Both the position numbers and the translations under genes were made by a program. The notes beneath the pieces were generated by a model. That model was not told the DNA's origin. It saw nothing but the letters and a program-made list of their open reading frames with translations, and ran no database searches. DNA of 64,000 nucleotides from Thalassavirus gary (Duplodnaviria; Heunggongvirae; Uroviricota; Caudoviricetes; Demerecviridae), in the IMG/VR virus record IMGVR_UViG_2974784677_000001; one strand, 5' to 3'. How positions within the stretch are numbered: position 1 is the first letter of the stretch; each line of letters begins with the position of its first letter. Shown here in pieces: positions 4,969 through 62,504 of this stretch.

Positions 4969-5745
4969 TTATTCTCCGATAATATTAATTAATTCTTTGA
5001 TAGTTACAATTGGTAGGTCGTTTGCAAGAGCTTTCTTGTAAGACGAAGATCCTTTCTTCGTCTCGTCTTCACAAACGAGATATTTAACAGTTTTGGTAAC
5101 GCTGCCTTTGACAGTGATACCGAATTGTGATAAGTAGTCAGCAGCCTTAGTACGACTAGCGTAGTCGTTAAGCTTGCCTGTGATACATACATCGAATTTG
5201 TGCTCTGTATTTTGTGTCGGTTTTGTGCTTACTTCCGCAAAAGTAATAAAACCGTCTAGAGCTTCGATTGTATCTAAACCCTCTAGTGAATTACACCAGT
5301 CCATGAGGGATTCCGTAGCTTTCGCACCTAGACCTGCATCCGTACAGGCTTTAGCAGTGATTTCCTGAAAGCTATTGATTTTTGTAGCAAGCTTCTCAGC
5401 GGCTACTTTACCGATTAACTTAATACCAAGTGAGCCAAGAACTAAGGCAAATTCACTGGTTTTAGTTTTCTGTATTTCGGTAAAGAGTTTCGAACCTACT
5501 TTGTCTCCAAGAACTGATGTGAGCCGCTGCTCGGTCAGGTTATATAGTCCTGAAATAGTAGTTAGTTCTAGTTTGGAAACAGTTGCAGAGCCAAAACCCT
5601 TAATTTTCATTTTCTTACAGTAGTTCTCAACAAGTTTTGAACTCTGTGCGGGACAAGCAGTTTTATTTCGACAGAATAATTGACCGTTAACGTTTTCAAG
5701 CGTTGAGCCGCATGACGGACATTCTGTTGGAATTACTATTTGCAT
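4969..5745 (-). CDS. NAD-dependent DNA ligase, C-terminal part (Zn-finger + HhH domains) = ligase subunit B
   Basis: CPSCGSTLENVNGQLFCRNKTACPAQ aligns with LigA C4 zinc finger; KGFGSATVSKL HhH motifs follow. Confidence 0.7.
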   Translation of the reverse strand: MQIVIPTECPSCGSTLENVNGQLFCRNKTACPAQSSKLVENYCKKMKIKGFGSATVSKLELTTISGLYNLTEQRLTSVLGDKVGSKLFTEIQKTKTSEFALVLGSLGIKLIGKVAAEKLATKINSFQEITAKACTDAGLGAKATESLMDWCNSLEGLDTIEALDGFITFAEVSTKPTQNTEHKFDVCITGKLNDYASRTKAADYLSQFGITVKGSVTKTVKYLVCEDETKKGSSSYKKALANDLPIVTIKELINIIGE

Positions 5746-6462: not shown

Positions 6463-6860
6463 GATACGTGTACCTCATTCTTACTTCTTGAAATGGTAGT
6501 TTTAGCTTCGTATCCCAATACTCTTAGTGCTGTTTTTAGTCTACATGCTTGGGAATAATCTTCTTTATATATAATCACACTATTTTTGAACTTAGACTCA
6601 GCTTCAGCAATTTTCTCACGAGCACCAACTTCCTCTACATAGATAGCTGCACTCGCTTTCATACAACGACGAGAGTATGCTGCATCCTTTATAGGTACTG
6701 GTCGCATTGCAGCAGCACCTAGAGTCGGTTCTACACGGGGCATTTTAGAACCAGAGCTTGGTTTAGGTGGGTCTTCTTTGGGGCATAGTGCAGCCGCCCC
6801 CGTAAGTGTTGCCTTTGGTTTTAGACCAGGCAGTCGTATATCCCAAAGTCTAATTCCCAT
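6456..6860 (-). CDS. hypothetical protein (inserted between ligase halves)
   Basis: 134-aa ORF, stop/start coupled with flanking genes; no recognisable nuclease motif. Confidence 0.3.
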   Translation of the reverse strand: MGIRLWDIRLPGLKPKATLTGAAALCPKEDPPKPSSGSKMPRVEPTLGAAAMRPVPIKDAAYSRRCMKASAAIYVEEVGAREKIAEAESKFKNSVIIYKEDYSQACRLKTALRVLGYEAKTTISRSKNEVHVSW

Positions 6861-7828
6861 TAGAAAGCCTCCACAATCTTAGGAATGATACCACCTGCAC
6901 GAATAATACGAACTTCTTGACCGATATGCGTGATACCCATCGCTTTCATATATTCTACATTATTTAAAGTAACACGAGTTACCTTGGCATCTTCAAGAAC
7001 TACTTCTTTAACAATAGCAACCGGAGTTACTTTACCGGAAGCGCCTACCCCCCAGATAACGTTTTCGATGGTAGTGATCTCACCTTCATCGTCTTCCTTA
7101 ACAGCGAATGCGCCTTTAGGGTACTTAGAAGTGAAACCCGCTGCGAAGTAAGCACGGTTACGTTTTAGACGGTATACTAGACCATCAGTCATGATTAGAC
7201 CATGCTCTACAGCTTTCTTAACGTTGTCGCTAAGAATAGTATGGAATCCTAGATTCTCTAGTTCTTTCATATCGTTATCGTACATAGCGCCTAGGCAACC
7301 ATCAGCACAAGTCTGTACGTTGTAAGCGATGAAACGCAAGCCGCCTTCCATGAGACGAGTCATGAACTCCTGACCATTATCAAGGTTCATAGCACCTGAC
7401 GCATAGTTACGAGCATTTTCAATATCTTTAGTAGTTACTACTTCACCAGTTACCTGCATAATCGGAGCGTAGTAGTCTACATTTGCAGGTACTAGATGCT
7501 CTAGGTTCTGTGTAATATCACGACCTTTAACACCGTCACCACGAGTCAAACATTGAACCAGCTTACCATTAATATATAGACAATCAACAGCACAGCCATC
7601 AAGTTTTGGTGACTCGATGTACGGTTCTAGATTAGGTAGTTCGTCACCACGACAAGGGTATTTCTTCTCTAGCGACCACATACGAAACATGTGAGCTTCC
7701 TCACCCTTGTGACCAATAGTTACTTCTGCATCTGGGAAGCGACGAATAAGAGCATCATACTCTTCGTCAGAGATTAGTGGTTCACCATCGTAGTACGCAC
7801 GCTGAAGTTCTGCAATAAATTGTTTCAT
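6860..7828 (-). CDS. NAD-dependent DNA ligase, N-terminal part (Ia + adenylation + OB domains) = ligase subunit A
   Basis: N-terminal Ia motif YYDGEPLISDEEYDAL, adenylation lysine motif KLDG, ends after OB fold (EVRIIRAGGIIPKIV). Confidence 0.8.
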   Translation of the reverse strand: MKQFIAELQRAYYDGEPLISDEEYDALIRRFPDAEVTIGHKGEEAHMFRMWSLEKKYPCRGDELPNLEPYIESPKLDGCAVDCLYINGKLVQCLTRGDGVKGRDITQNLEHLVPANVDYYAPIMQVTGEVVTTKDIENARNYASGAMNLDNGQEFMTRLMEGGLRFIAYNVQTCADGCLGAMYDNDMKELENLGFHTILSDNVKKAVEHGLIMTDGLVYRLKRNRAYFAAGFTSKYPKGAFAVKEDDEGEITTIENVIWGVGASGKVTPVAIVKEVVLEDAKVTRVTLNNVEYMKAMGITHIGQEVRIIRAGGIIPKIVEAF

Positions 7829-33689: not shown

Positions 33690-33893
33690 ATGTGGCGAAG
33701 ACACAAAGTAAGAGTAAATTGGCATCGCCGTCTAAAAGACGATGAAATTGCAAAAGAAAACGGTTTTAACCAACGCTTGTTCAAACAAACTGAAGTCTAT
33801 GAATATGACTTGTCTTGGTGGGACTACCCACATAGAACAGTACAGCGTAACTGGAAAAGCCAAACTAAGAACAGAAAACAATGGGAACGCTAG
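33690..33893 (+). CDS. hypothetical basic protein
   Basis: 67-aa ORF with RBS AGGAGAGAAACATG. Confidence 0.35.
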   Translation: MWRRHKVRVNWHRRLKDDEIAKENGFNQRLFKQTEVYEYDLSWWDYPHRTVQRNWKSQTKNRKQWER

Positions 33894-33918
33894 ACGTTCC
33901 CTTTCTTGTGGAGAATAT

Positions 33919-34464
33919 ATGAAGAATCAAATTTACCTAGCAGGCGATATGCTAAACCGTGGTGCTCAACTTCAACGAGCAGAAGAAAAACGTGATTTGC
34001 TTAATCTAGGGTACGAATTATACGTGCCACAGGATAATAAAGATATAAATGATAAAGAAAATCTTAACTCGAATGATGGTCTAGCAGAGAAAATTGTTCG
34101 TGCAGATACAGATGGTATCGTGAATTCTGATATCGTGGTCATGGAAGCTCGTGAAGCAGCTCTTGGTACTTGTATTGAACTTGGTCAGATTAAAGGCATG
34201 AAAGACGTCGCTAAAACAGTCTTGTCTATGCTAGAGTCTGGTTGCTCTCTTAAAGAAGTAATTCATAATATGGAGCAAATTCGTGATAAGCTTGTTCTAG
34301 TTCACAACTCAGATATTCGTCGTGCAGGTAATCCTACCGAAACAGGCGATCGTCGCAGCTATGCCCCTCACCAGTACATGTACGGTGTAGTGCTTGATGT
34401 AACCAACGGTCATGGTTACTACGATTGGAACGAAGTTACATACATCCTAGACCGAGGTGTATAA
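33919..34464 (+). CDS. nucleoside 2-deoxyribosyltransferase-like (NDT/Rcl fold) protein; start taken at MKNQIYLAGD after RBS GGAG
   Basis: IYLAGDM motif (NDT family YLAGP-like) and downstream acidic GTCIELG; track ORF starts further upstream at 33742. Confidence 0.45.
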   Translation: MKNQIYLAGDMLNRGAQLQRAEEKRDLLNLGYELYVPQDNKDINDKENLNSNDGLAEKIVRADTDGIVNSDIVVMEAREAALGTCIELGQIKGMKDVAKTVLSMLESGCSLKEVIHNMEQIRDKLVLVHNSDIRRAGNPTETGDRRSYAPHQYMYGVVLDVTNGHGYYDWNEVTYILDRGV

Positions 34465-35090
34465 TGTTAGAAAAGATTTGGTCAGTTATTGCGGTGCTCC
34501 TAGTAATCGGAGCATCAATCATCTCAGGGGCAGATTTGTTTGTGTCTGCCTTGAGTCTAGTAGGTATTCTGTTTGTACTAGGTGTCGCCTTTAAGCGACC
34601 AGAGTCACAGTTACTGGGTGCTGTATTCTGCGGGTTCTTGGCGTTTGCCTCGATGGGCGCAGGCTTTTATGCGAATGCAGTCGTTAATGGATTGATACTA
34701 ATCCCCGCCTCTATATATGGATATTTTCATTGGAAGCGAAGAAAAGGTTTTCAATTAGAGCAAAGTATGTCTAGTGGTGGACTCACTAATATGATTGTTT
34801 CATTAGTGGCCGTCACAGCATTAGTGTTCTTCTTTGGAACTATGGGAGCAGGTGGGGCTATGCCTCTACTAGATGCCCTAACTGGAGTCATGCCAGTATT
34901 TGCAACATTCTTAATGATTGGTGCATATCGAGAGCAATGGCTTCTATGGATACCCTTTAATGCAATACAAGCCTTTATGTGGTTTACCGCCGCGTCTTTG
35001 CAGCCTGCGGTACTGGCGGTGTTTGTGTTGAAACTGGTATTCTTGATTAATTCATTAATCGGATTTTATACTTGGAGAAAAGAGGCGTAA
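34464..35090 (+). CDS. pnuC: PnuC-like nicotinamide riboside/NMN transporter (multi-TM)
   Basis: 6-7 predicted TM helices, IYGYFHWKRRKG resembles the PnuC GW..W motif; TAATG coupling to upstream NDT-like gene. Confidence 0.5.
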   Translation: MLEKIWSVIAVLLVIGASIISGADLFVSALSLVGILFVLGVAFKRPESQLLGAVFCGFLAFASMGAGFYANAVVNGLILIPASIYGYFHWKRRKGFQLEQSMSSGGLTNMIVSLVAVTALVFFFGTMGAGGAMPLLDALTGVMPVFATFLMIGAYREQWLLWIPFNAIQAFMWFTAASLQPAVLAVFVLKLVFLINSLIGFYTWRKEA

Positions 35091-35101
35091 GCCTCTTTTT
35101 A
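35078..35101 (+). terminator. rho-independent terminator
   Basis: AGAGGCGTAAGCCTCT + TTTTT. Confidence 0.6.
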
Positions 35102-35111
35102 AAAAGTTTTA

Positions 35112-35140
35112 TTTGCTAACTTCTCTTATTTAACGTATAA
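35112..35140 (+). promoter_or_regulatory. early promoter TTGCTA-17-TATAAT
   Basis: promoter family; leader AGTTATATAAATTGATGAGAGAGG. Confidence 0.6.
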
Positions 35141-35172
35141 TAGTTATATAAATTGATGAGAGAGGTTATCAA

Positions 35173-58078: not shown

Positions 58079-59010
58079 AAGATATGAAATTTAACGTACA
58101 AGATTTGATCGACCGTGGCTTGGTTAAAGCTAAAGAATACGACAATGGACTAAAAGTATTGAAGTACGACCGTAAGGTATTCTTCAAGAACTTGTGGCAT
58201 CTAGACGAACGCTTGCTTGAGTGTCGTGGTCGTGTGGTAGACGCTGACTGGAATGTGATTGTTAATCCATTCAAGAAAGTATTCAACTATGGTGAAAACG
58301 GTACTGGTAACGAACTACGTACTGACTGCCTGTACCGTGAAGTACACAAGCTTAATGGCTTCTTGGGCTGCGTGACTAACTCGTCTGAATATGGTATGTT
58401 GTACTCTACTACTGGTACACTGGATTCTACGTATGCACAGATGGTTAAAGATATGTTCGTACACCATACTCACCATGCAGATCTGCTTCACAAAGACTTT
58501 ACTATGATGTTTGAGGTGTGTCACCCAGATGACCCACACATTGTAGAAGAGCAAGTGGGTCTATATCTAATTGGTATCAGACACACTGGTGAAGGCGACG
58601 AGTGTGAAGAAGACCAGTTTACAGAAGCAGAGCTAGATAAAATGGCACGCTGGTTCGGTTGGAGTCGTCCAGAGCATCGTCTAGATACACTCGACAATAT
58701 CCTAGCACGAGCTAAAATGTCTAAAACAGAAGGTGTTATGGTGTGTTCAGCATTAAATGACGAGCACTTGTTTAAATACAAGACTCCACACTATCTGTCT
58801 AAAAAGCTGCTGATGCGTCTAGGTAAAGCTCGTGTGGAGCAGTTGTTTGACAACCCAGAGCAGTTTAAGAAGAACTTAAAGGATGAAGAGTTCTTTGGTT
58901 TTGTGGAATATGTTTCTTCTAATATCCCCCGCGATGTGTGGAAGACCATGAAAGATCAAGAACGACGTAACCTTATTGAGTGTTGGTTCGATAAAAACAA
59001 CGCTTTTTAA
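58060..59010 (+). CDS. ATP-dependent RNA/polynucleotide ligase (covalent nucleotidyltransferase superfamily, Rnl-like)
   Basis: motif I HKLNGF (KxNG), motif III FEVCH, motif IV TEGVMV, motif V LFKYKTP. Confidence 0.5.
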   Translation: MESYGVEDMKFNVQDLIDRGLVKAKEYDNGLKVLKYDRKVFFKNLWHLDERLLECRGRVVDADWNVIVNPFKKVFNYGENGTGNELRTDCLYREVHKLNGFLGCVTNSSEYGMLYSTTGTLDSTYAQMVKDMFVHHTHHADLLHKDFTMMFEVCHPDDPHIVEEQVGLYLIGIRHTGEGDECEEDQFTEAELDKMARWFGWSRPEHRLDTLDNILARAKMSKTEGVMVCSALNDEHLFKYKTPHYLSKKLLMRLGKARVEQLFDNPEQFKKNLKDEEFFGFVEYVSSNIPRDVWKTMKDQERRNLIECWFDKNNAF

Positions 59011-59030
59011 ATTGCCAAAGCAGGGATGCT
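59002..59030 (+). promoter_or_regulatory. early promoter TTGCCA-17-TATAAT
   Basis: inside the 3' end of the ligase gene; leader TAGAAATTGAGGAGATTGTTATG. Confidence 0.5.
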
Positions 59031-59065
59031 TTGATATAATATCTGTAGAAATTGAGGAGATTGTT

Positions 59066-59470
59066 ATGAAAAAACTATATTTGATTCGCGGTGTATCTGG
59101 TTCTGGCAAAACTACTCTAGCTAAAACAATGGAACAAGGTATGCTATACTCTCGTGCTGTTGCTGCTGATGACTACTTTATGGTAGAAGGCAAATATCTG
59201 TTTGATGTAAACAAGCTACATGCAGCACATCAATGGTGTCAAGACCAAGTTGATGGTCTTATGGTTTGCGAAATGCACCACATTATTGTGCATAACACCT
59301 TCACTACAGAAAAAGAAATGAAACCATACCTTAACCTAGCAGAAAAGTATGGTTATGAAGTAACAACTCTAGTGGTTGAAAATCGTCACGAATCGGAATC
59401 GGTACACGATGTACCAGAAGAAACTCTAACACGTCAGCATCAACGCCTACGTGCGAACATCCGTCTATAA
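59066..59470 (+). CDS. polynucleotide 5'-kinase (T4 Pnk kinase-domain-like P-loop protein)
   Basis: LIRGVSGSGKTTLAK Walker A; C-terminal VHDVPEETLTRQHQRLR resembles T4 Pnk VFDVPWTELVKRNSKR; start at MKKLYLIRG after RBS GAGGAG. Confidence 0.5.
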   Translation: MKKLYLIRGVSGSGKTTLAKTMEQGMLYSRAVAADDYFMVEGKYLFDVNKLHAAHQWCQDQVDGLMVCEMHHIIVHNTFTTEKEMKPYLNLAEKYGYEVTTLVVENRHESESVHDVPEETLTRQHQRLRANIRL

Positions 59471-59479
59471 GGAGATAAT

Positions 59480-60043
59480 ATGCGTCTACAGTTCGGAGCA
59501 AAACTAAATCCAGATGTGAATTATTTTATCACGTCTGACTTACACTTCTTTCATACTAACATTATGAAGTTCTGCCCAGAGACGCGTCCTTGGGCTGACC
59601 ATAATGAAATGACGGAAGCACTTATTGCACATTGGAACTCTATTGTGGGTGAAGATGATGTAGTGTTCCACCTTGGAGATTTTTCATTCGCAGGAATGGA
59701 GAAAACTCAGGCTGTCCTAGACCGATTGAATGGTACAATTGTATTTGTAATGGGCAACCACGACAAAACTGTTCGAAATCAGTTGAAGTCACCAAACAAG
59801 TTCGAATATCTCGAAGTTACTTATAATAAAATCAAAATCTGTATGTTCCACTATGCAATGCGTGTATGGAATATGCAACATCATGGTAGCATCCATTTCT
59901 ATGGTCACTCTCATGGGTCACTAGAAGGTACTGGACGCTCTATGGACGTGGGCTATGATGCTCATGGTCGAATCCTGCCGCTAGATTGGGCAGTAAAACG
60001 AATGCAGAAAATTCAAGACATCGAAACAGAGGATCATCACTAA
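59480..60043 (+). CDS. calcineurin-like metallophosphoesterase (candidate 2',3'/3'-phosphatase partner)
   Basis: DLHFFH, GDFSF, GNHD, GHSHG motifs. Confidence 0.6.
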   Translation: MRLQFGAKLNPDVNYFITSDLHFFHTNIMKFCPETRPWADHNEMTEALIAHWNSIVGEDDVVFHLGDFSFAGMEKTQAVLDRLNGTIVFVMGNHDKTVRNQLKSPNKFEYLEVTYNKIKICMFHYAMRVWNMQHHGSIHFYGHSHGSLEGTGRSMDVGYDAHGRILPLDWAVKRMQKIQDIETEDHH

Positions 60044-61155: not shown

Positions 61156-62028
61156 ATGTCAAATATTAGCATTATGTGTAACGGCGACAACCACCATTAC
61201 GAACTACAAGTAGACTTCACTAAATTCTCAGATGGAGCAGAAACTTGTACTATTCGCAAACCAAATGTAGACCTTACTAAGTCTAACTTCGTGGTCGTTA
61301 CTATTAACTTCCAAGACGTTACTCGTGATATTGTACGTCTACTCCTAGTGAAAGATGCGCTAGACAATATGCGTGCTGAAAACTGTATCAATTGGGGACG
61401 TATCTCACTAAACATGCCATATATCCCTAACGCCCGTGCTGACCGTAAGTTTGGTTTCGGTATGCCGCTACCTGTTAAGGTATTTGCTAACCTTATCAAT
61501 GCAATGAACTTCGATGAAGTAATGGTAGAAGACCCTCATTCAGATGTTAGTGTGGCACTTATCAACAACGCCACTGTGCTAGACCAATCAGCATTGGTTA
61601 GTATGATGGAACATCATATCGAAAGATACATGCCAGACTTCACTCTGTGTGCACCAGACCTAGGTGCTGCAAAGAAAATCTTTGATGTAGCGTTTGCTAT
61701 GGATAAGCGTGACTGGATTCAAGGTCTTAAAATCCGTGACGTACTTACAGGTGATATTGTTAAGTGTGACCTAGTGCAAGATGAAGTGCCTGAAAATGTT
61801 CTTATTGTAGACGACATTTCAGACGGTGGAGCATCATTCAAGTTCTTGGCTAAGAAACTAAAAGAGCGCGGAGCTAAGAAAGTAGGTCTATATGTTACTC
61901 ATGGTATCTTCTCTAAGGGTCTAGACCCAATCCGCGAAGATATTGATTATGTATTCGTACACAACTTCATTGGTGGCTACATCAATGCAGCAAACGTTCT
62001 AGCATTCAACGAAGGTAAGGATCAATAA
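61156..62028 (+). CDS. ribose-phosphate pyrophosphokinase (PRPP synthetase) family protein; candidate ADP-ribose pyrophosphokinase (Adps-like)
   Basis: VLIVDDISDGGASFKFLAKKLKERGAKKVGLYVTHGIFS closely parallels Prs [38 protein letters not shown]. Confidence 0.7.
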   Translation: MSNISIMCNGDNHHYELQVDFTKFSDGAETCTIRKPNVDLTKSNFVVVTINFQDVTRDIVRLLLVKDALDNMRAENCINWGRISLNMPYIPNARADRKFGFGMPLPVKVFANLINAMNFDEVMVEDPHSDVSVALINNATVLDQSALVSMMEHHIERYMPDFTLCAPDLGAAKKIFDVAFAMDKRDWIQGLKIRDVLTGDIVKCDLVQDEVPENVLIVDDISDGGASFKFLAKKLKERGAKKVGLYVTHGIFSKGLDPIREDIDYVFVHNFIGGYINAANVLAFNEGKDQ

Positions 62029-62504
62029 TGATTAAAGTAGTTCATGGTGATATGGTCAAACATCTACAATCAAAAGACCACCTAGATGCATATGCTCACC
62101 AATGTAACTGTTTCTGTAGAATGGGGAGAGGCATTGCGCCTCTTCTAGCTAAGGCAGTTCCTGGCCTTAGAAAAGCAGATGATATGACTGTTCCTGGTGA
62201 TAAGTCTAAGTTAGGTAGTGTATCTTTATCTGCACATCCTAACGGAGCAGTAGTATTTAATGTCTATGGTCAATATCATTGGCACGCACATAAAGTAGCA
62301 CCAGGCAGAAATACTGACTATGGTGCGCTTAGAAATGGACTAATTACAGTTATTGATCTAATGCAAGAGCATGATTTTAAGACTCTAGGTCTACCTTTGA
62401 TTGGCTGTGGGCTAGCAGGTGGCGATTGGGATAATGTTGTACTCCCAATGATTCACGAATTATTTAATGGATCGGGTGTTGACGTTACTATTTTTAAATT
62501 GTAA
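62028..62504 (+). CDS. macro-domain protein (ADP-ribose binding/processing)
   Basis: 158 aa; HQCNCFCRMGRGIA and GLPLIGCGLAGGDW resemble macro-domain Gly-rich loops; ATGA coupling to the Prs-like gene. Confidence 0.55.
   Translation: MIKVVHGDMVKHLQSKDHLDAYAHQCNCFCRMGRGIAPLLAKAVPGLRKADDMTVPGDKSKLGSVSLSAHPNGAVVFNVYGQYHWHAHKVAPGRNTDYGALRNGLITVIDLMQEHDFKTLGLPLIGCGLAGGDWDNVVLPMIHELFNGSGVDVTIFKL

Follow-up and report, generated by a model that had tools for sequence, protein, structure and literature searches.

A translationally coupled gene pair of Vibrio phage Gary, with an NDT-like and a PnuC-like product: a possible cassette for deoxynucleoside salvage

Proteins of the Pnu family work by facilitated diffusion with metabolic trapping, carry the motif WxxW(x)3D/N in TM6 and have gate tryptophans at the ends of TM3 and TM7 (PMC5749112). 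Phage members of the family have recently been shown to be anti-defence tools, which import nicotinamide riboside (NR) for the rebuilding of NAD+. In NARP3, a cassette of enterobacterial T5-like phages, the PnuC-like Bas30_87 is paired with the NadR-like Bas30_86 (PMC13464706). NR import by this phage system is proven, the NadR-like enzyme cannot be dispensed with even in E. coli, although this host has a NadR itself, and the substitution Q94A in Bas30_87 abolishes NR binding (PMC13464706). As a consequence of the NARP3 finding, annotation pipelines label every phage PnuC-like gene a nicotinamide transporter. Other Pnu homologues, which occur in nrd/NrdR contexts, have been proposed to be deoxynucleoside carriers and are called PnuN (Rodionov and Gelfand 2005, as cited in PMC7749635).

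Several enzymes of the nucleoside 2-deoxyribosyltransferase (NDT) superfamily have been described. The residue D82 of CtNDT contacts the 5'-OH of the sugar. The ribose-specific MilB has a Phe where the phage protein described below has Tyr6, and its mutant F17Y reverts to deoxyribose (PMC10603095). One of the four phage-derived NDTs in a 2025 preprint was active, and the other three were without transglycosylation on dA, dG or dZ. Phage Gary itself is the source of an experimentally characterised operon, NARP1-AP; the papers on that operon do not mention the gene pair that is the subject of this study.

The gene pair and its two proteins

The window, that is, the whole stretch of 64,000 nucleotides analysed here, is 100% identical to Vibrio phage Gary (NC_055913.1), a T5-like Thalassavirus; a window position equals the record position minus 46312. 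Both open reading frames of the TAATG-coupled pair lie where the original prediction had placed them (Table 1), the stop codon TAA (34462-34464) and the start codon ATG (34464-34466) having one base in common. Shine-Dalgarno-like sequences, GGAG (33910-33913) for the first gene and GAGG (34454-34457), internal to the first gene, for the second, are situated 5-6 nt ahead of the respective ATG. Names have already been given to the products in RefSeq: nucleoside 2-deoxyribosyltransferase (gp128) and PnuC-like transporter (gp129). The hairpin at the end of the second gene (-14.5 kcal/mol, z = -4.65, with none of 200 shuffled sequences equally stable) is likely to be the intrinsic terminator that ends the transcription unit of the pair; a consensus terminator scan passes over it, there being no more than four T in the tail. 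A promoter-like site (35113-35141) is found 3' of the hairpin. The two genes are kept in about 50 Thalassavirus genomes, and their dN/dS values of 0.08-0.15 show that both are under purifying selection. Neither gp128 nor gp129 is matched by the PADLOC defence models.

Table 1. Features of the gene pair (window positions)
Feature	Position	Strand	Description
Gene 1	33919-34464	+	181 aa, starts MKNQIYLAGD; Gary gp128, KNV71_gp188; NDT-superfamily N-glycosyl enzyme
Tyr6 codon	33934-33936	+	First-strand Tyr, orients the nucleophile and marks deoxyribose preference; aligns with EfPDT Tyr5
Asp63 codon	34105-34107	+	Catalytic Asp; aligns with EfPDT Asp60, CtNDT D62
Ala81 codon	34159-34161	+	Position of the 5'-OH-binding Asp in classical NDTs (EfPDT Asp80, CtNDT D82)
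Glu87 codon	34177-34179	+	Predicted covalent nucleophile, motif GTCIELG; aligns with EfPDT Glu86, CtNDT E88
TAATG stop/start overlap	34462-34466	+	Read from the sequence; translational coupling of both genes
Gene 2	34464-35090	+	208 aa; Gary gp129, KNV71_gp187; Pnu-family (PnuC-fold) membrane facilitator
Ser83 codon	34710-34712	+	TM3; position of the NR-binding Gln (Bas30_87 Gln94; N. mucosa and H. influenzae PnuC)
IYGYFHWKRRKG	34713-34748	+	Residues 84-95; cytoplasmic end of TM3 with gate Trp90
WxxW(x)3N signature, W159-L-L-W162-I-P-F-N166	34938-34961	+	Aligns with REQWALWIVVN of PnuC 4QTN
Terminator-like hairpin	35077-35100	+	10 bp, then U-run; over the gp129 stop codon; RNA fold

The first protein, gp128, is a member of the NDT/DNPH1 superfamily with the flavodoxin-like NDT fold. 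It matches Pfam Nuc_deoxyrib_tr (PF05014; E=4e-9, score 37 bits with the cut-off at 28.8) and phrog_1817 (E=5e-63). The HMM match, the fold and the catalytic residues Tyr6, Asp63 and Glu87 all agree that the 181-residue protein with the IYLAGD motif is an NDT/Rcl-fold enzyme, as had been proposed. Glu87 is invariant in every alignment made, and Asp63 in three alignments of relatives, both including 48 distant ones, all of which have Tyr6 as well (48/48). Judged from the sequence, Tyr6 argues for deoxyribose over ribose as the probable sugar of gp128. The position of Ala81 is occupied by Ala or Gly in all 46 close relatives; among the distant relatives, Ala is found in 18, Asp in 12 and Ser in 8. 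The phage family also has a motif (N/H)151-Q-Y153, with His in Gary and Asn in 26 of the 46 relatives, which is likened to Asn130/Tyr132 of EfPDT (NLM motif, donors from the neighbouring subunit) by motif similarity only.

Four arginines of gp128 (R134, R135, R145 and R146) were considered as a phosphate-binding site. They were dropped as evidence for phosphate binding because D-x-R-R is common to the nucleoside transferases CtNDT and EfPDT and is structural in both; conservation of R145 and R146 does not extend beyond close relatives. The family of gp128 forms a small separate cluster of 306 representatives out of 1.84 billion. When the ten longest relatives were scanned for domains, an extra domain was identifiable in one of them (P0197, guanylate-kinase-like).

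The second protein, gp129, matches Pfam NMN_transporter (PF04973; E=7e-29, 101.4 bits against a cut-off of 27.3), TIGR01528 (E=1e-22, score 80.8 bits with the cut-off at 42.45), phrog_1880 (E=7e-55) and PDB entry 4QTN (E=4e-14). Its AF2 model (pLDDT 91.6) has 8 helices, agrees with the seven-TM core of the family, in which a linker TM joins two 3-TM repeats, and is matched by Foldseek to 4QTN (E=1e-9, query-normalised TM-score 0.86), with no other significant fold match. Thus the Pnu HMMs, the WxxW(x)3N motif and the predicted fold concur that the membrane protein is PnuC-like, and the structure prediction that had been suggested as a check gives for gp129 the fold of PnuC. The GW..W-like motif named in the original prediction is present (IYGYFHWKRRKG), but it is not the WxxW signature of the family. 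W90, W159, W162 and W204 are invariant in gp129 alignments. The polar residues by which Bas30_87 contacts NR, known from mutagenesis, are kept in part: its N180 corresponds to N166 of gp129, its Q94 to Ser83 and its N45 to Gly34, the last also a Gly in PnuC of N. mucosa. At the TM3 Gln position, 6 of the 9 clade sequences compared have Ser or Cys and 2 have Gln. In a neighbour-joining tree (no bootstrap), the clade of gp129 is separate from H. influenzae PnuC and N. mucosa PnuC, both proven NR transporters, and it also stands apart from the NadR-associated phage PnuCs.

Partner genes and genomic neighbourhoods

The partners of Pnu genes were surveyed in 27 IMG/VR viral loci, 5 of them belonging to the clade of the Gary transporter (37-76% identity) and 22 to other clades. 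In all five loci of the Gary clade an NDT-like gene lies directly upstream and no NadR-like gene is present. Among the 22 loci of other clades, a NadR-like gene is found within 5 kb in 20 and an NDT-like gene in none. The partner gene therefore splits cleanly by transporter clade among these 27 viral loci. The NDT-to-Pnu adjacency occurs in unrelated phages (Thalassavirus, the Grimontviridae Proteus phage J3S, the metagenomic phages L016, L017 and L021, and the Gram-positive PolIII-alpha phage L104), and the TAATG-type overlap or abutment of the two genes recurs in related phages. Since the transporter of L104 belongs to a different Pnu lineage, its pairing with an NDT-like gene arose independently.

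The neighbours of these genes are concerned mostly with deoxynucleotides. The pair of phage L016 is situated between nrdD and nrdG, and that of L017 lies in the order MazG-like gene, pair, NrdD and PF01712 deoxynucleoside kinase (E=3e-21). NrdD comes after the pair in Proteus phage J3S, NrdD and NrdG are downstream in L115, and ThyA adjoins in L021 and L103. The NDT-like gene of Aeromonas phage LAh_8 is followed by a dNMP kinase gene. In Staphylococcus siphoviruses, to which the 40-50 kb contigs in which the NDT-like gene is common apparently belong, a dUTPase gene is near. Nudix-like or MazG-like genes adjoin the NDT-like gene in other phages. Among the loci examined, none has an NAD enzyme beside the NDT-like gene. 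The pair of Gary lies within the tRNA region, about 12 kb from the ribonucleotide reductase (RNR) genes, at the site where enterobacterial T5-like phages carry NadR-PnuC.

The 192-residue membrane protein encoded after the NDT-like gene of Kayvirus was considered as a Pnu/SWEET homologue on a sub-threshold PQ-loop match. It was not counted as such because its profile-profile comparison with PnuC is not significant (0.6% probability). A scan of bacterial genomes captured no Lactobacillus PnuN and gave one close relative only, from Endozoicomonas (53% identity), whose context, an aminotransferase and an OvoA-like gene, is uninformative.

The Nampt-like/Prs-like module noted in the original prediction 27 kb away from the pair is real. 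It extends from 61156 to beyond 64000 and is the NARP1-AP operon. The accompanying claim that the phage invests in several routes from NAD precursors holds as far as investment in NAD+ through NARP1-AP is concerned, but finds no support for the route from NR, as Gary has no NR kinase or NMNAT and the context of the pair is one of deoxynucleotides. No homologue of NadR, NMNAT or NR kinase is found in the Gary genome, and a tblastn search of the whole genome with two phage NadR-like proteins returned nothing better than E ~1. Similar searches with dNK, ThyA, dNMP kinase, SLOG and Nudix-like queries gave nothing below E ~1. The only P-loop candidate of the phage, gp177 (AAA_33), lies between RNA-ligase and phosphoesterase genes and looks like RNA repair. 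Gary also carries NAD-dependent ligase genes and, in its terminal repeats, encodes the 5'-deoxyribonucleotidase Dmp. The co-occurrence of Namat with the NDT-like gene does not discriminate because Namat/Nampt homologues are too common (1976 phage records).

A possible route for deoxynucleosides and its alternatives

The partner genes, the deoxynucleotide neighbours, Tyr6 and Ser83 together favour deoxynucleosides over NR, and among the candidate substrates of the pair a 2'-deoxynucleoside is the likeliest, ahead of NR. The pair can be read tentatively, with a confidence slightly short of even, as a conserved, translationally coupled phage cassette for deoxynucleoside salvage rather than for NR uptake. 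It is possible, if a little less probable, that this is the first recognised virus-encoded system for uptake and rebasing of deoxynucleosides, consisting of a PnuN-type facilitator, which would bring in deoxynucleosides of environmental or host origin, and an NDT-type enzyme.

By combining these observations, it is possible to outline how such a cassette might operate. The two proteins would act on the same kind of molecule, gp128 attacking its N-glycosidic bond. Deoxynucleosides would cross the inner membrane through gp129 by facilitated diffusion, a mechanism that other Pnu proteins have been shown to use. In gp128, a covalent deoxyribosyl-Glu87 intermediate would form, and the deoxyribosyl group would then be moved from Glu87 to another base or to water. 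This transfer of the sugar would maintain the inward gradient and would turn the available deoxynucleoside into one that is open to phosphorylation in the infected cell. If the host is Gram-negative, this would be thymidine or deoxyuridine, phosphorylated via Tdk, and the product would feed phage DNA synthesis. Like the identity of the substrate, we infer the direction of transport, the choice between transferase and hydrolase activity, and the part played by Tdk of the host. The product of a transglycosylase is not charge-trapped, and trapping would hinge on the host kinase, which counts against salvage, as do the three phage-derived NDTs of the 2025 preprint that were without transglycosylation.

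The original prediction saw in the pair a unit for uptake and processing of NR. Here gp129 would import NR or a related pyridine nucleoside, and gp128 would cleave it or exchange its base, for example converting NR into nicotinamide and ribose; the nicotinamide would supply the phage Namat of NARP1-AP, or NR would go to the host NadR. The transporter offers several arguments for such a function, and most of these speak at the same time against salvage: gp129 exceeds the cut-off of the NCBIfam 'equivalog' model TIGR01528 for the NR transporter PnuC, has the PnuC fold, is about 30% identical to PnuC of H. influenzae and carries WxxW(x)3N in the same YREQW context, its YREQWxxWxxxN being nearly identical to that of the NR-bound PnuC 4QTN. 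The NR-binding Gln, however, is Ser83 in gp129, although two members of the Gary clade, J3S and GAP52, retain it. The tRNA-region site, which like the distance from the RNR genes counts against salvage, also favours NR, the PnuC-like genes at the syntenic site in T5-like coliphages being proven NR importers; but NARP3 needs its NadR-like enzyme even in a NadR-positive host, whereas Gary has no NadR, NMNAT or NR kinase, and across the 27 viral loci the Gary clade is never found with a NadR-like gene, nor the NadR-paired clades with an NDT-like one. Gary clearly invests in NAD+, a further point against salvage. For NR there are also its functional NARP1-AP, which consumes nicotinamide, its NAD-dependent ligase genes, and the PncA of Vibrio hosts, by which nicotinamide would be drained. 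Against this stand the silence of the NARP1-AP papers about the pair and the Staphylococcus records, in which the Namat search gives about half as many as the NDT-like search (198 vs 393, counted as records and not as co-occurrence per contig). With respect to the enzyme, NR has a good leaving group, the relatives of the NDT fold include TIR-domain NADases, and a retron has an NDT-like effector that depletes adenine derivatives; yet Tyr6 argues for deoxyribose, and in other loci the NDT-like genes are accompanied by nrd, thyA, dNK, dNMP kinase and dUTPase, never by genes of NAD enzymes. None of the contexts found supports an NR unit, the partners, neighbours, Tyr6 and Ser83 all pointing elsewhere, and this route appears unlikely.

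The chemistry of gp128 might instead be directed at nucleotides, and the original prediction had allowed for this in its fallback idea of an action on dNMPs. As a DNPH1/MilB-like N-glycosidase or base-exchange enzyme it would sanitise, degrade or re-base dNMPs ahead of an NMP kinase, while the Pnu protein would import or export the matching nucleoside or base and might be the exit for deoxynucleosides made by Dmp. The acidic 5'-OH ligand, whose loss (Ala81) counts against salvage, is missing also from DNPH1 and MilB, but the phosphate-binding Ser of these enzymes (S98 and S97, respectively) is likewise replaced by Ala. The fusion of P0197 to a guanylate-kinase-like domain and the dNMP kinase gene next in LAh_8 would suit a nucleotide better than a nucleoside substrate, and the adjoining Nudix-like/MazG-like genes, the Dmp of Gary and the bidirectional nature of Pnu facilitators are consistent with this. 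Other motifs of gp128 are those of nucleoside transferases: D132-x-R134-R135 has counterparts in CtNDT (DDFRR) and EfPDT (D103-R104-R105, described as structural), while PQ(D/E)N..INDK and N/H-x-Y match EfPDT. Nor is there an obvious reason why a nucleotide enzyme should be strictly coupled to a nucleoside-type transporter, and this function is considered quite doubtful. An exchange of bases by gp128 at the dNMP level, a more radical variant of salvage, has a still smaller probability. Finally, the adjacency might reflect only the modular organisation of phage genomes, the substrates of gp128 and gp129 being unrelated. Auxiliary metabolic genes of phages do cluster for regulatory reasons, many NDT-like genes occur without a Pnu gene beside them, the two genes of Cronobacter phage GAP52 are separated by 1.1 kb with an endonuclease VII gene among those in between, and the genes of the pair have diverged unequally between Gary and its Thalassavirus relative L105/L184 (128,241 bp), with 95% vs 73% amino-acid identity. 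Such an absence of a shared function is very improbable in view of the one-base start/stop overlap with its internal Shine-Dalgarno sequence, the recurrence of this order and abutment in no fewer than five unrelated phage lineages, the independent recruitment of another Pnu lineage by L104, and the presence of the NDT-like partner in 5/5 loci of the Gary clade vs 0/22 of the others.

The clade of gp129, which is represented in about 50 Thalassavirus genomes and in several other phage groups, differs from the phage transporters that import NR both in its partner enzyme and in its metabolic neighbourhood. If deoxynucleosides are what it carries, phages would be able to take up DNA precursors from the surroundings of the cell, and this would matter for burst size in nutrient-poor seawater. 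Phages of at least five lineages would thereby obtain DNA precursors without recourse to ribonucleotide reduction. The current annotation would then be misleading, and the PnuN prediction would become testable with a small, well-behaved gene pair, giving a first experimental handle on a long-predicted specificity. If, on the other hand, gp129 carries NR after all, the NDT-like enzyme would represent a novel type of NR processing that supplies NARP1. A full-text search of the literature for papers in which PnuC, phage and deoxyribosyltransferase all occur gave none.

Comparison with described systems

NARP3 is likewise a two-gene cassette of Demerecviridae in the tRNA region. Its enzyme gene also lies directly upstream of the Pnu gene and overlaps it, and the transporter has the same fold and the same WxxW(x)3N motif. 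The partner, however, is a kinase/adenylyltransferase in NARP3 and a glycosyl enzyme of the NDT superfamily in Gary. The transporters are only about 28% identical and belong to different clades, Gln94 of Bas30_87 being Ser83 in gp129, and Gary encodes no route from NR to NAD. The NR facilitators of N. mucosa (4QTN) and H. influenzae are 24-30% identical to gp129 and have the gate Trp and YREQWxxWxxxN in common with it. They differ from gp129 in that the Gln of TM3 is replaced in the latter by Ser and Gln171 of TM5 by Thr, in the clade-specific motif W-I-P-x-N-x-L-(E/Q) of gp129, and in the genomic partner, which is NDT-like and not NadR.

On the side of the enzyme, the best PDB sequence match of gp128 is EfPDT (7M5H; profile E=8.5e-7), a characterised purine 2'-deoxyribosyltransferase. 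The motifs Y-x-A-G, PQ(D/E)N..INDK, ADT, E-(L/I)-G, D-x-R-R and N/H-x-Y are common to gp128 and EfPDT/CtNDT. As in the 'group 2' NDT enzymes, an insert follows strand 4, although the helical insert of gp128 is longer. Only the first ~95 residues superpose, and the 5'-OH-binding Asp is Ala81 in gp128. DNPH1/Rcl and MilB resemble gp128 in the Tyr/Asp/Glu triad and in having no Asp six residues before the nucleophile. Their phosphate-binding Ser is Ala81 in gp128, the alignment of DNPH1 at this position being based on the spacing xLGxxxELG, which we take to follow from the numbering S98 and E104. The C-terminal half is unrelated, and the comparison with DNPH1 and MilB gave no evidence of a phosphate pocket in gp128.

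The relatives of gp129 in L016, L017 and J3S resemble PnuN in that a Pnu protein is tied to ribonucleotide reductase and deoxynucleotide genes, a likeness of gene context and not of sequence; in Gary the RNR genes are about 12 kb from the pair. PnuN remains a prediction made for bacteria, whereas the Gary element is viral and has a predicted transglycosylase as its partner instead of a kinase. By analogy, the cassette of Gary would be a functional match to the predicted deoxynucleoside transporter PnuN, with a transglycosylase taking the place of the kinase.

Gene layout and protein families

The window is 100% identical to the genome of Vibrio phage Gary (NC_055913.1; window position = record position - 46312), a T5-like phage (Demerecviridae, Ermolyevavirinae, Thalassavirus) whose host is Vibrio harveyi/campbellii BAA-1116. 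The two genes of the cassette lie exactly where the original prediction had placed them (33919-35090), in the tRNA-rich early region with a tRNA-Ser gene 350 bp upstream. Their TAATG coupling is also confirmed: the TAA stop of gene 1 and the ATG start of gene 2 share one A, and a GAGG is found within gene 1, 6 nt before the start of gene 2. As the hairpin with its U-run at the end of gene 2 is followed by a promoter-like site, the transcription unit probably ends with the pair. The hairpin upstream of gene 1, the stability of which is modestly above that of shuffled sequences (z = -2.2), could be a terminator or attenuator, but is a weak candidate.

Positions of the gene pair, its signals and other Gary genes in the window
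Feature	Position	Strand	Remarks
NAD-dependent DNA ligase ORF	4969-5745	-	
NAD-dependent DNA ligase ORF	6860-7828	-	
Hairpin	33883-33901		GC-rich, 7 bp; overlaps the stop of the small upstream ORF gp127, 18 nt 5' of gene 1
Gene 1 (gp128), NDT-like	33919-34464	+	181 aa, N-terminus MKNQIYLAGD; RefSeq: nucleoside 2-deoxyribosyltransferase
Gene 2 (gp129), Pnu-family transporter	34464-35090	+	208 aa; RefSeq: PnuC-like nicotinamide mononucleotide transport
Hairpin	35077-35100		10 bp and U-run, over gene 2 end; -14.5 kcal/mol, z = -4.65
Promoter-like site	35113-35141		3' of the hairpin
gp176-gp178	58084-60043	+	in a row: RNA ligase, 134-aa AAA_33 P-loop kinase, Metallophos phosphoesterase
Prs-like (Adps)	61156-62028	+	RefSeq: ribose-phosphate pyrophosphokinase
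Macro-domain (Adpp)	62028-62504	+	RefSeq: phosphatase
Nampt-like (Namat)	62573->64000	+	cut by window end; RefSeq: nicotinamide phosphoribosyl transferase

Both genes are kept across about 50 Thalassavirus genomes and are under purifying selection (dN/dS 0.08-0.15). The two genes have different histories within the genus: Gary and one Thalassavirus relative, a 128,241-bp IMG/VR contig, share 95% identity in the NDT-like protein but only 73% in the Pnu protein, and synonymous differences are 0.35 and 0.80, respectively. A recombination breakpoint at the gene junction is suggested by this.

The placement of the gene 1 product in the nucleoside 2'-deoxyribosyltransferase (NDT) superfamily is borne out by a PF05014 match (residues 5-95 only, E=4e-9) and by the alignment of Tyr6, Asp63 and Glu87 with the catalytic Tyr5, Asp60 and Glu86 of EfPDT (7M5H), a characterized purine 2'-deoxyribosyltransferase and the nearest solved sequence. 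The three residues are invariant, even in relatives at 23-50% identity. The phage family phrog_1817 covers the protein end to end (E=5e-63), and its C-terminal half is predicted to carry a helical insert longer than in any solved relative. The motifs PQ(D/E)N..INDK, D-x-R-R and (N/H)-x-Y are common to the Gary enzyme, EfPDT and CtNDT, another characterized NDT. However, the aspartate that touches the sugar 5'-OH in these enzymes (D82 in CtNDT, D80 in EfPDT) is replaced by Ala81, a position occupied by Ala or Gly in 46/46 close relatives. The subfamily is small, with 306 clusters in a set of 1.84 billion representative proteins, and the contigs and records examined are phage or prophage-like.

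Membership of the gene 2 product in the Pnu family is secure: it matches PF04973 (E=7e-29), TIGR01528 (80.8 bits; cut-off 42.45), phrog_1880 (E=7e-55) and, over residues 5-206, the sequence of PnuC 4QTN (E=4e-14). The AlphaFold2 model (pLDDT 91.6, eight helices) superimposes on 4QTN with a TM-score of 0.86, in agreement with a PnuC-type fold, and a search with the predicted monomer gave no other significant fold match. The family signature WxxW(x)3D/N (PMC5749112) is present as W159-LL-W162-IPF-N166; IYGYFHWKRRKG, the stretch originally taken for a PnuC-like motif, in fact forms the end of TM3, where the gate Trp90 lies. The Gary-clade transporters have their own version of the TM6 motif, W-I-P-x-N-x-L-(E/Q). 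Gln94 of Bas30_87, required for NR binding, aligns with Gln99 of N. mucosa PnuC and with Ser83 of Gary; this position is Ser or Cys in 6/9 clade sequences compared, and Gln in J3S and GAP52. In a neighbor-joining tree, built without support values, the transporters that accompany an NDT-like gene in Gram-negative phages group into one clade, which excludes the PnuCs of H. influenzae and N. mucosa as well as the NadR-associated PnuCs of phages.

Partners and neighbors in related phages

Which partner gene a phage Pnu gene has depends on its clade. IMG/VR yielded 27 viral Pnu loci, which are not phylogenetically independent. The five that belong to the Gary clade (37-76% identity) come from three independent phage groups; all have an NDT-like gene directly upstream and none has a NadR-like gene. 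In the other clades (23-32% identity), a NadR-like gene lies within 5 kb in 20 of 22 loci and an NDT-like gene in none.

The NDT-like and Pnu genes also stand together in phages unrelated to Gary. Their order in Proteus phage J3S (Grimontviridae) is that of Gary, the two genes adjoin in the metagenomic phages L016, L017 and L021, and in Cronobacter phage GAP52 they are 1.1 kb apart. They also adjoin in L104, which encodes PolIII-alpha and is of a type known from Bacillus-type prophages. The L104 Pnu protein shares up to 39% identity with Firmicutes PnuCs but only 24.5% with the Gary protein, implying independent recruitment. In Kayvirus (Staphylococcus phage phiIPLA-RODI, L009 6566-7144; also L178-L180) a 192-aa polytopic membrane protein (phrog_2642) overlaps the 3' end of the NDT-like gene. 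Its PQ-loop match is sub-threshold (E=4e-4) and its profile comparison with PnuC not significant; it is a possible transporter partner.

The genes around the NDT-like gene or the cassette in the relatives are deoxynucleotide genes, and in none of the loci examined does an NAD enzyme adjoin the NDT-like gene. The pair lies between nrdD and nrdG in L016, and the order in L017 is MazG-like, NDT, Pnu, NrdD and a PF01712 deoxynucleoside kinase. NrdD is downstream in J3S, NrdD and NrdG in the contig L115, ThyA adjoins in L021 and L103, and a dUTPase is close by in Staphylococcus siphoviruses. A dNMP-kinase gene follows and overlaps the NDT-like gene in Aeromonas phage LAh_8, and in P0197, a 380-aa metagenomic protein, a guanylate-kinase-like domain (phrog_1815, E=4e-21) is fused to the NDT-like domain; these two cases hint at a nucleoside monophosphate as what the enzyme may make, or what its product may become.

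In SPbeta-like prophages the NDT-like gene is followed by that of a Nudix-like protein (phrog_8902; L013 4627-5286, L015 4594-5304 and L109-L113, all PolIII-alpha-encoding Bacillus prophage or phage contigs) of about 220 aa, which is soluble and has a Nudix-box-like sequence; in L103 these two genes flank the ThyA gene. In J3S the Pnu gene is separated from nrdD by the gene of a YAcAr/SLOG-family protein (PF10686, E=7e-10; L007 6192-6596), annotated 'GTP-binding domain'; SLOG ligands are nucleotides or nucleotide-derived.

Possible substrates and NAD+ metabolism

The clade-dependent partner, the recurrent adjacency and the deoxynucleotide neighbors lead to the tentative proposal, held with a little less than even confidence, that the cassette handles 2'-deoxynucleosides. 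It is very unlikely that the two genes are merely co-located without a shared function. The Pnu protein would equilibrate 2'-deoxynucleosides across the inner membrane by facilitated diffusion, as demonstrated for PnuT and PnuC (PMC5749112). The enzyme would form a deoxyribosyl-Glu87 intermediate, with a different base or water as the acceptor of the sugar, thus pulling in further substrate. The resulting forms could be trapped by a kinase of the host or the phage. Thymidine kinase would be available in the Vibrio host, as in Gram-negative salvage generally, and the deoxynucleoside kinase of L017 is a possible trapping kinase on the phage side. Because the terminal repeats of Gary carry the gene for Dmp, the 5'-deoxyribonucleotidase of T5 type, it is also possible that the facilitator, being bidirectional, helps to release deoxynucleosides.

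Uptake and processing of nicotinamide riboside (NR), the function originally predicted for the pair, now appears unlikely, given the deoxynucleotide neighbors elsewhere, Ser83, Tyr6 and the lack of a NadR-like gene in Gary. The first-strand Tyr is associated with deoxyribose in the superfamily; the ribose-specific MilB has Phe, and F17Y switches it to deoxyribose (PMC10603095). With Tyr6 invariant, NR, NMN and other ribosyl substrates are thus less likely, although not absolutely so, because the Tyr-bearing CtNDT takes ribonucleosides, if poorly. The Gary RefSeq annotation lists no NadR-like or other NMN adenylyltransferase, and tblastn of two phage NadR-like proteins against the genome found none. 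NARP3, a phage NadR-like enzyme and PnuC-like NR transporter (Bas30_86 and Bas30_87; PMC13464706), requires both components in E. coli despite the host NadR and PnuC, and so the Gary transporter alone would probably not rebuild NAD+. A nucleotide N-glycosidase resembling DNPH1 or MilB is a rather improbable alternative: Ala81, a top match to MilB and the kinase associations of P0197 and LAh_8 speak for it, but the phosphate-binding Ser is missing and the motifs are of the EfPDT type.

The suggestion that Gary invests in several NAD precursor routes holds for one of them. The predicted Nampt-like/Prs-like module, about 27 kb away, is present as the Adps-Adpp-Namat operon 'NARP1-AP', which was cloned from Gary, rebuilds NAD+ and overcomes the aRES and Nezha defences (bioRxiv 10.64898/2026.01.28.702374, where the Pnu pair goes unmentioned); the NR route lacks its NadR-like enzyme. 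A conversion of NR to nicotinamide that feeds Namat is conceivable, as the Vibrio PncA drains nicotinamide, but none of the data examined gave direct support for it.

Slightly upstream of NARP1-AP, with gp179 and gp180 in between, gp176-gp178 have the look of a set for RNA (tRNA) repair, as would suit a phage with about 25 tRNA genes. The two ORFs annotated as NAD-dependent DNA ligase, which make Gary replication directly NAD-dependent, may be one split ligase; a small ORF and a gene of DprA-like/SLOG type separate them.

Comparison with known systems

Annotations already exist for the Gary genes, and phage genes of the PnuC-like kind are known (NARP3, August 2026); the RefSeq label 'nicotinamide mononucleotide transport' should be taken as a family name rather than a substrate call. 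A full-text literature search found no paper combining PnuC, phage and deoxyribosyltransferase. No description was found of one Pnu clade being wired to an NDT-superfamily enzyme rather than NadR, or of its deoxynucleotide context. NARP3, for which NR import and NAD+ rebuilding were shown experimentally in T5-like coliphages, has the same position in the tRNA region and the same enzyme-then-transporter overlap as the Gary pair. The function proposed here for the cassette would correspond to that of PnuN, a proposed deoxynucleoside transporter.
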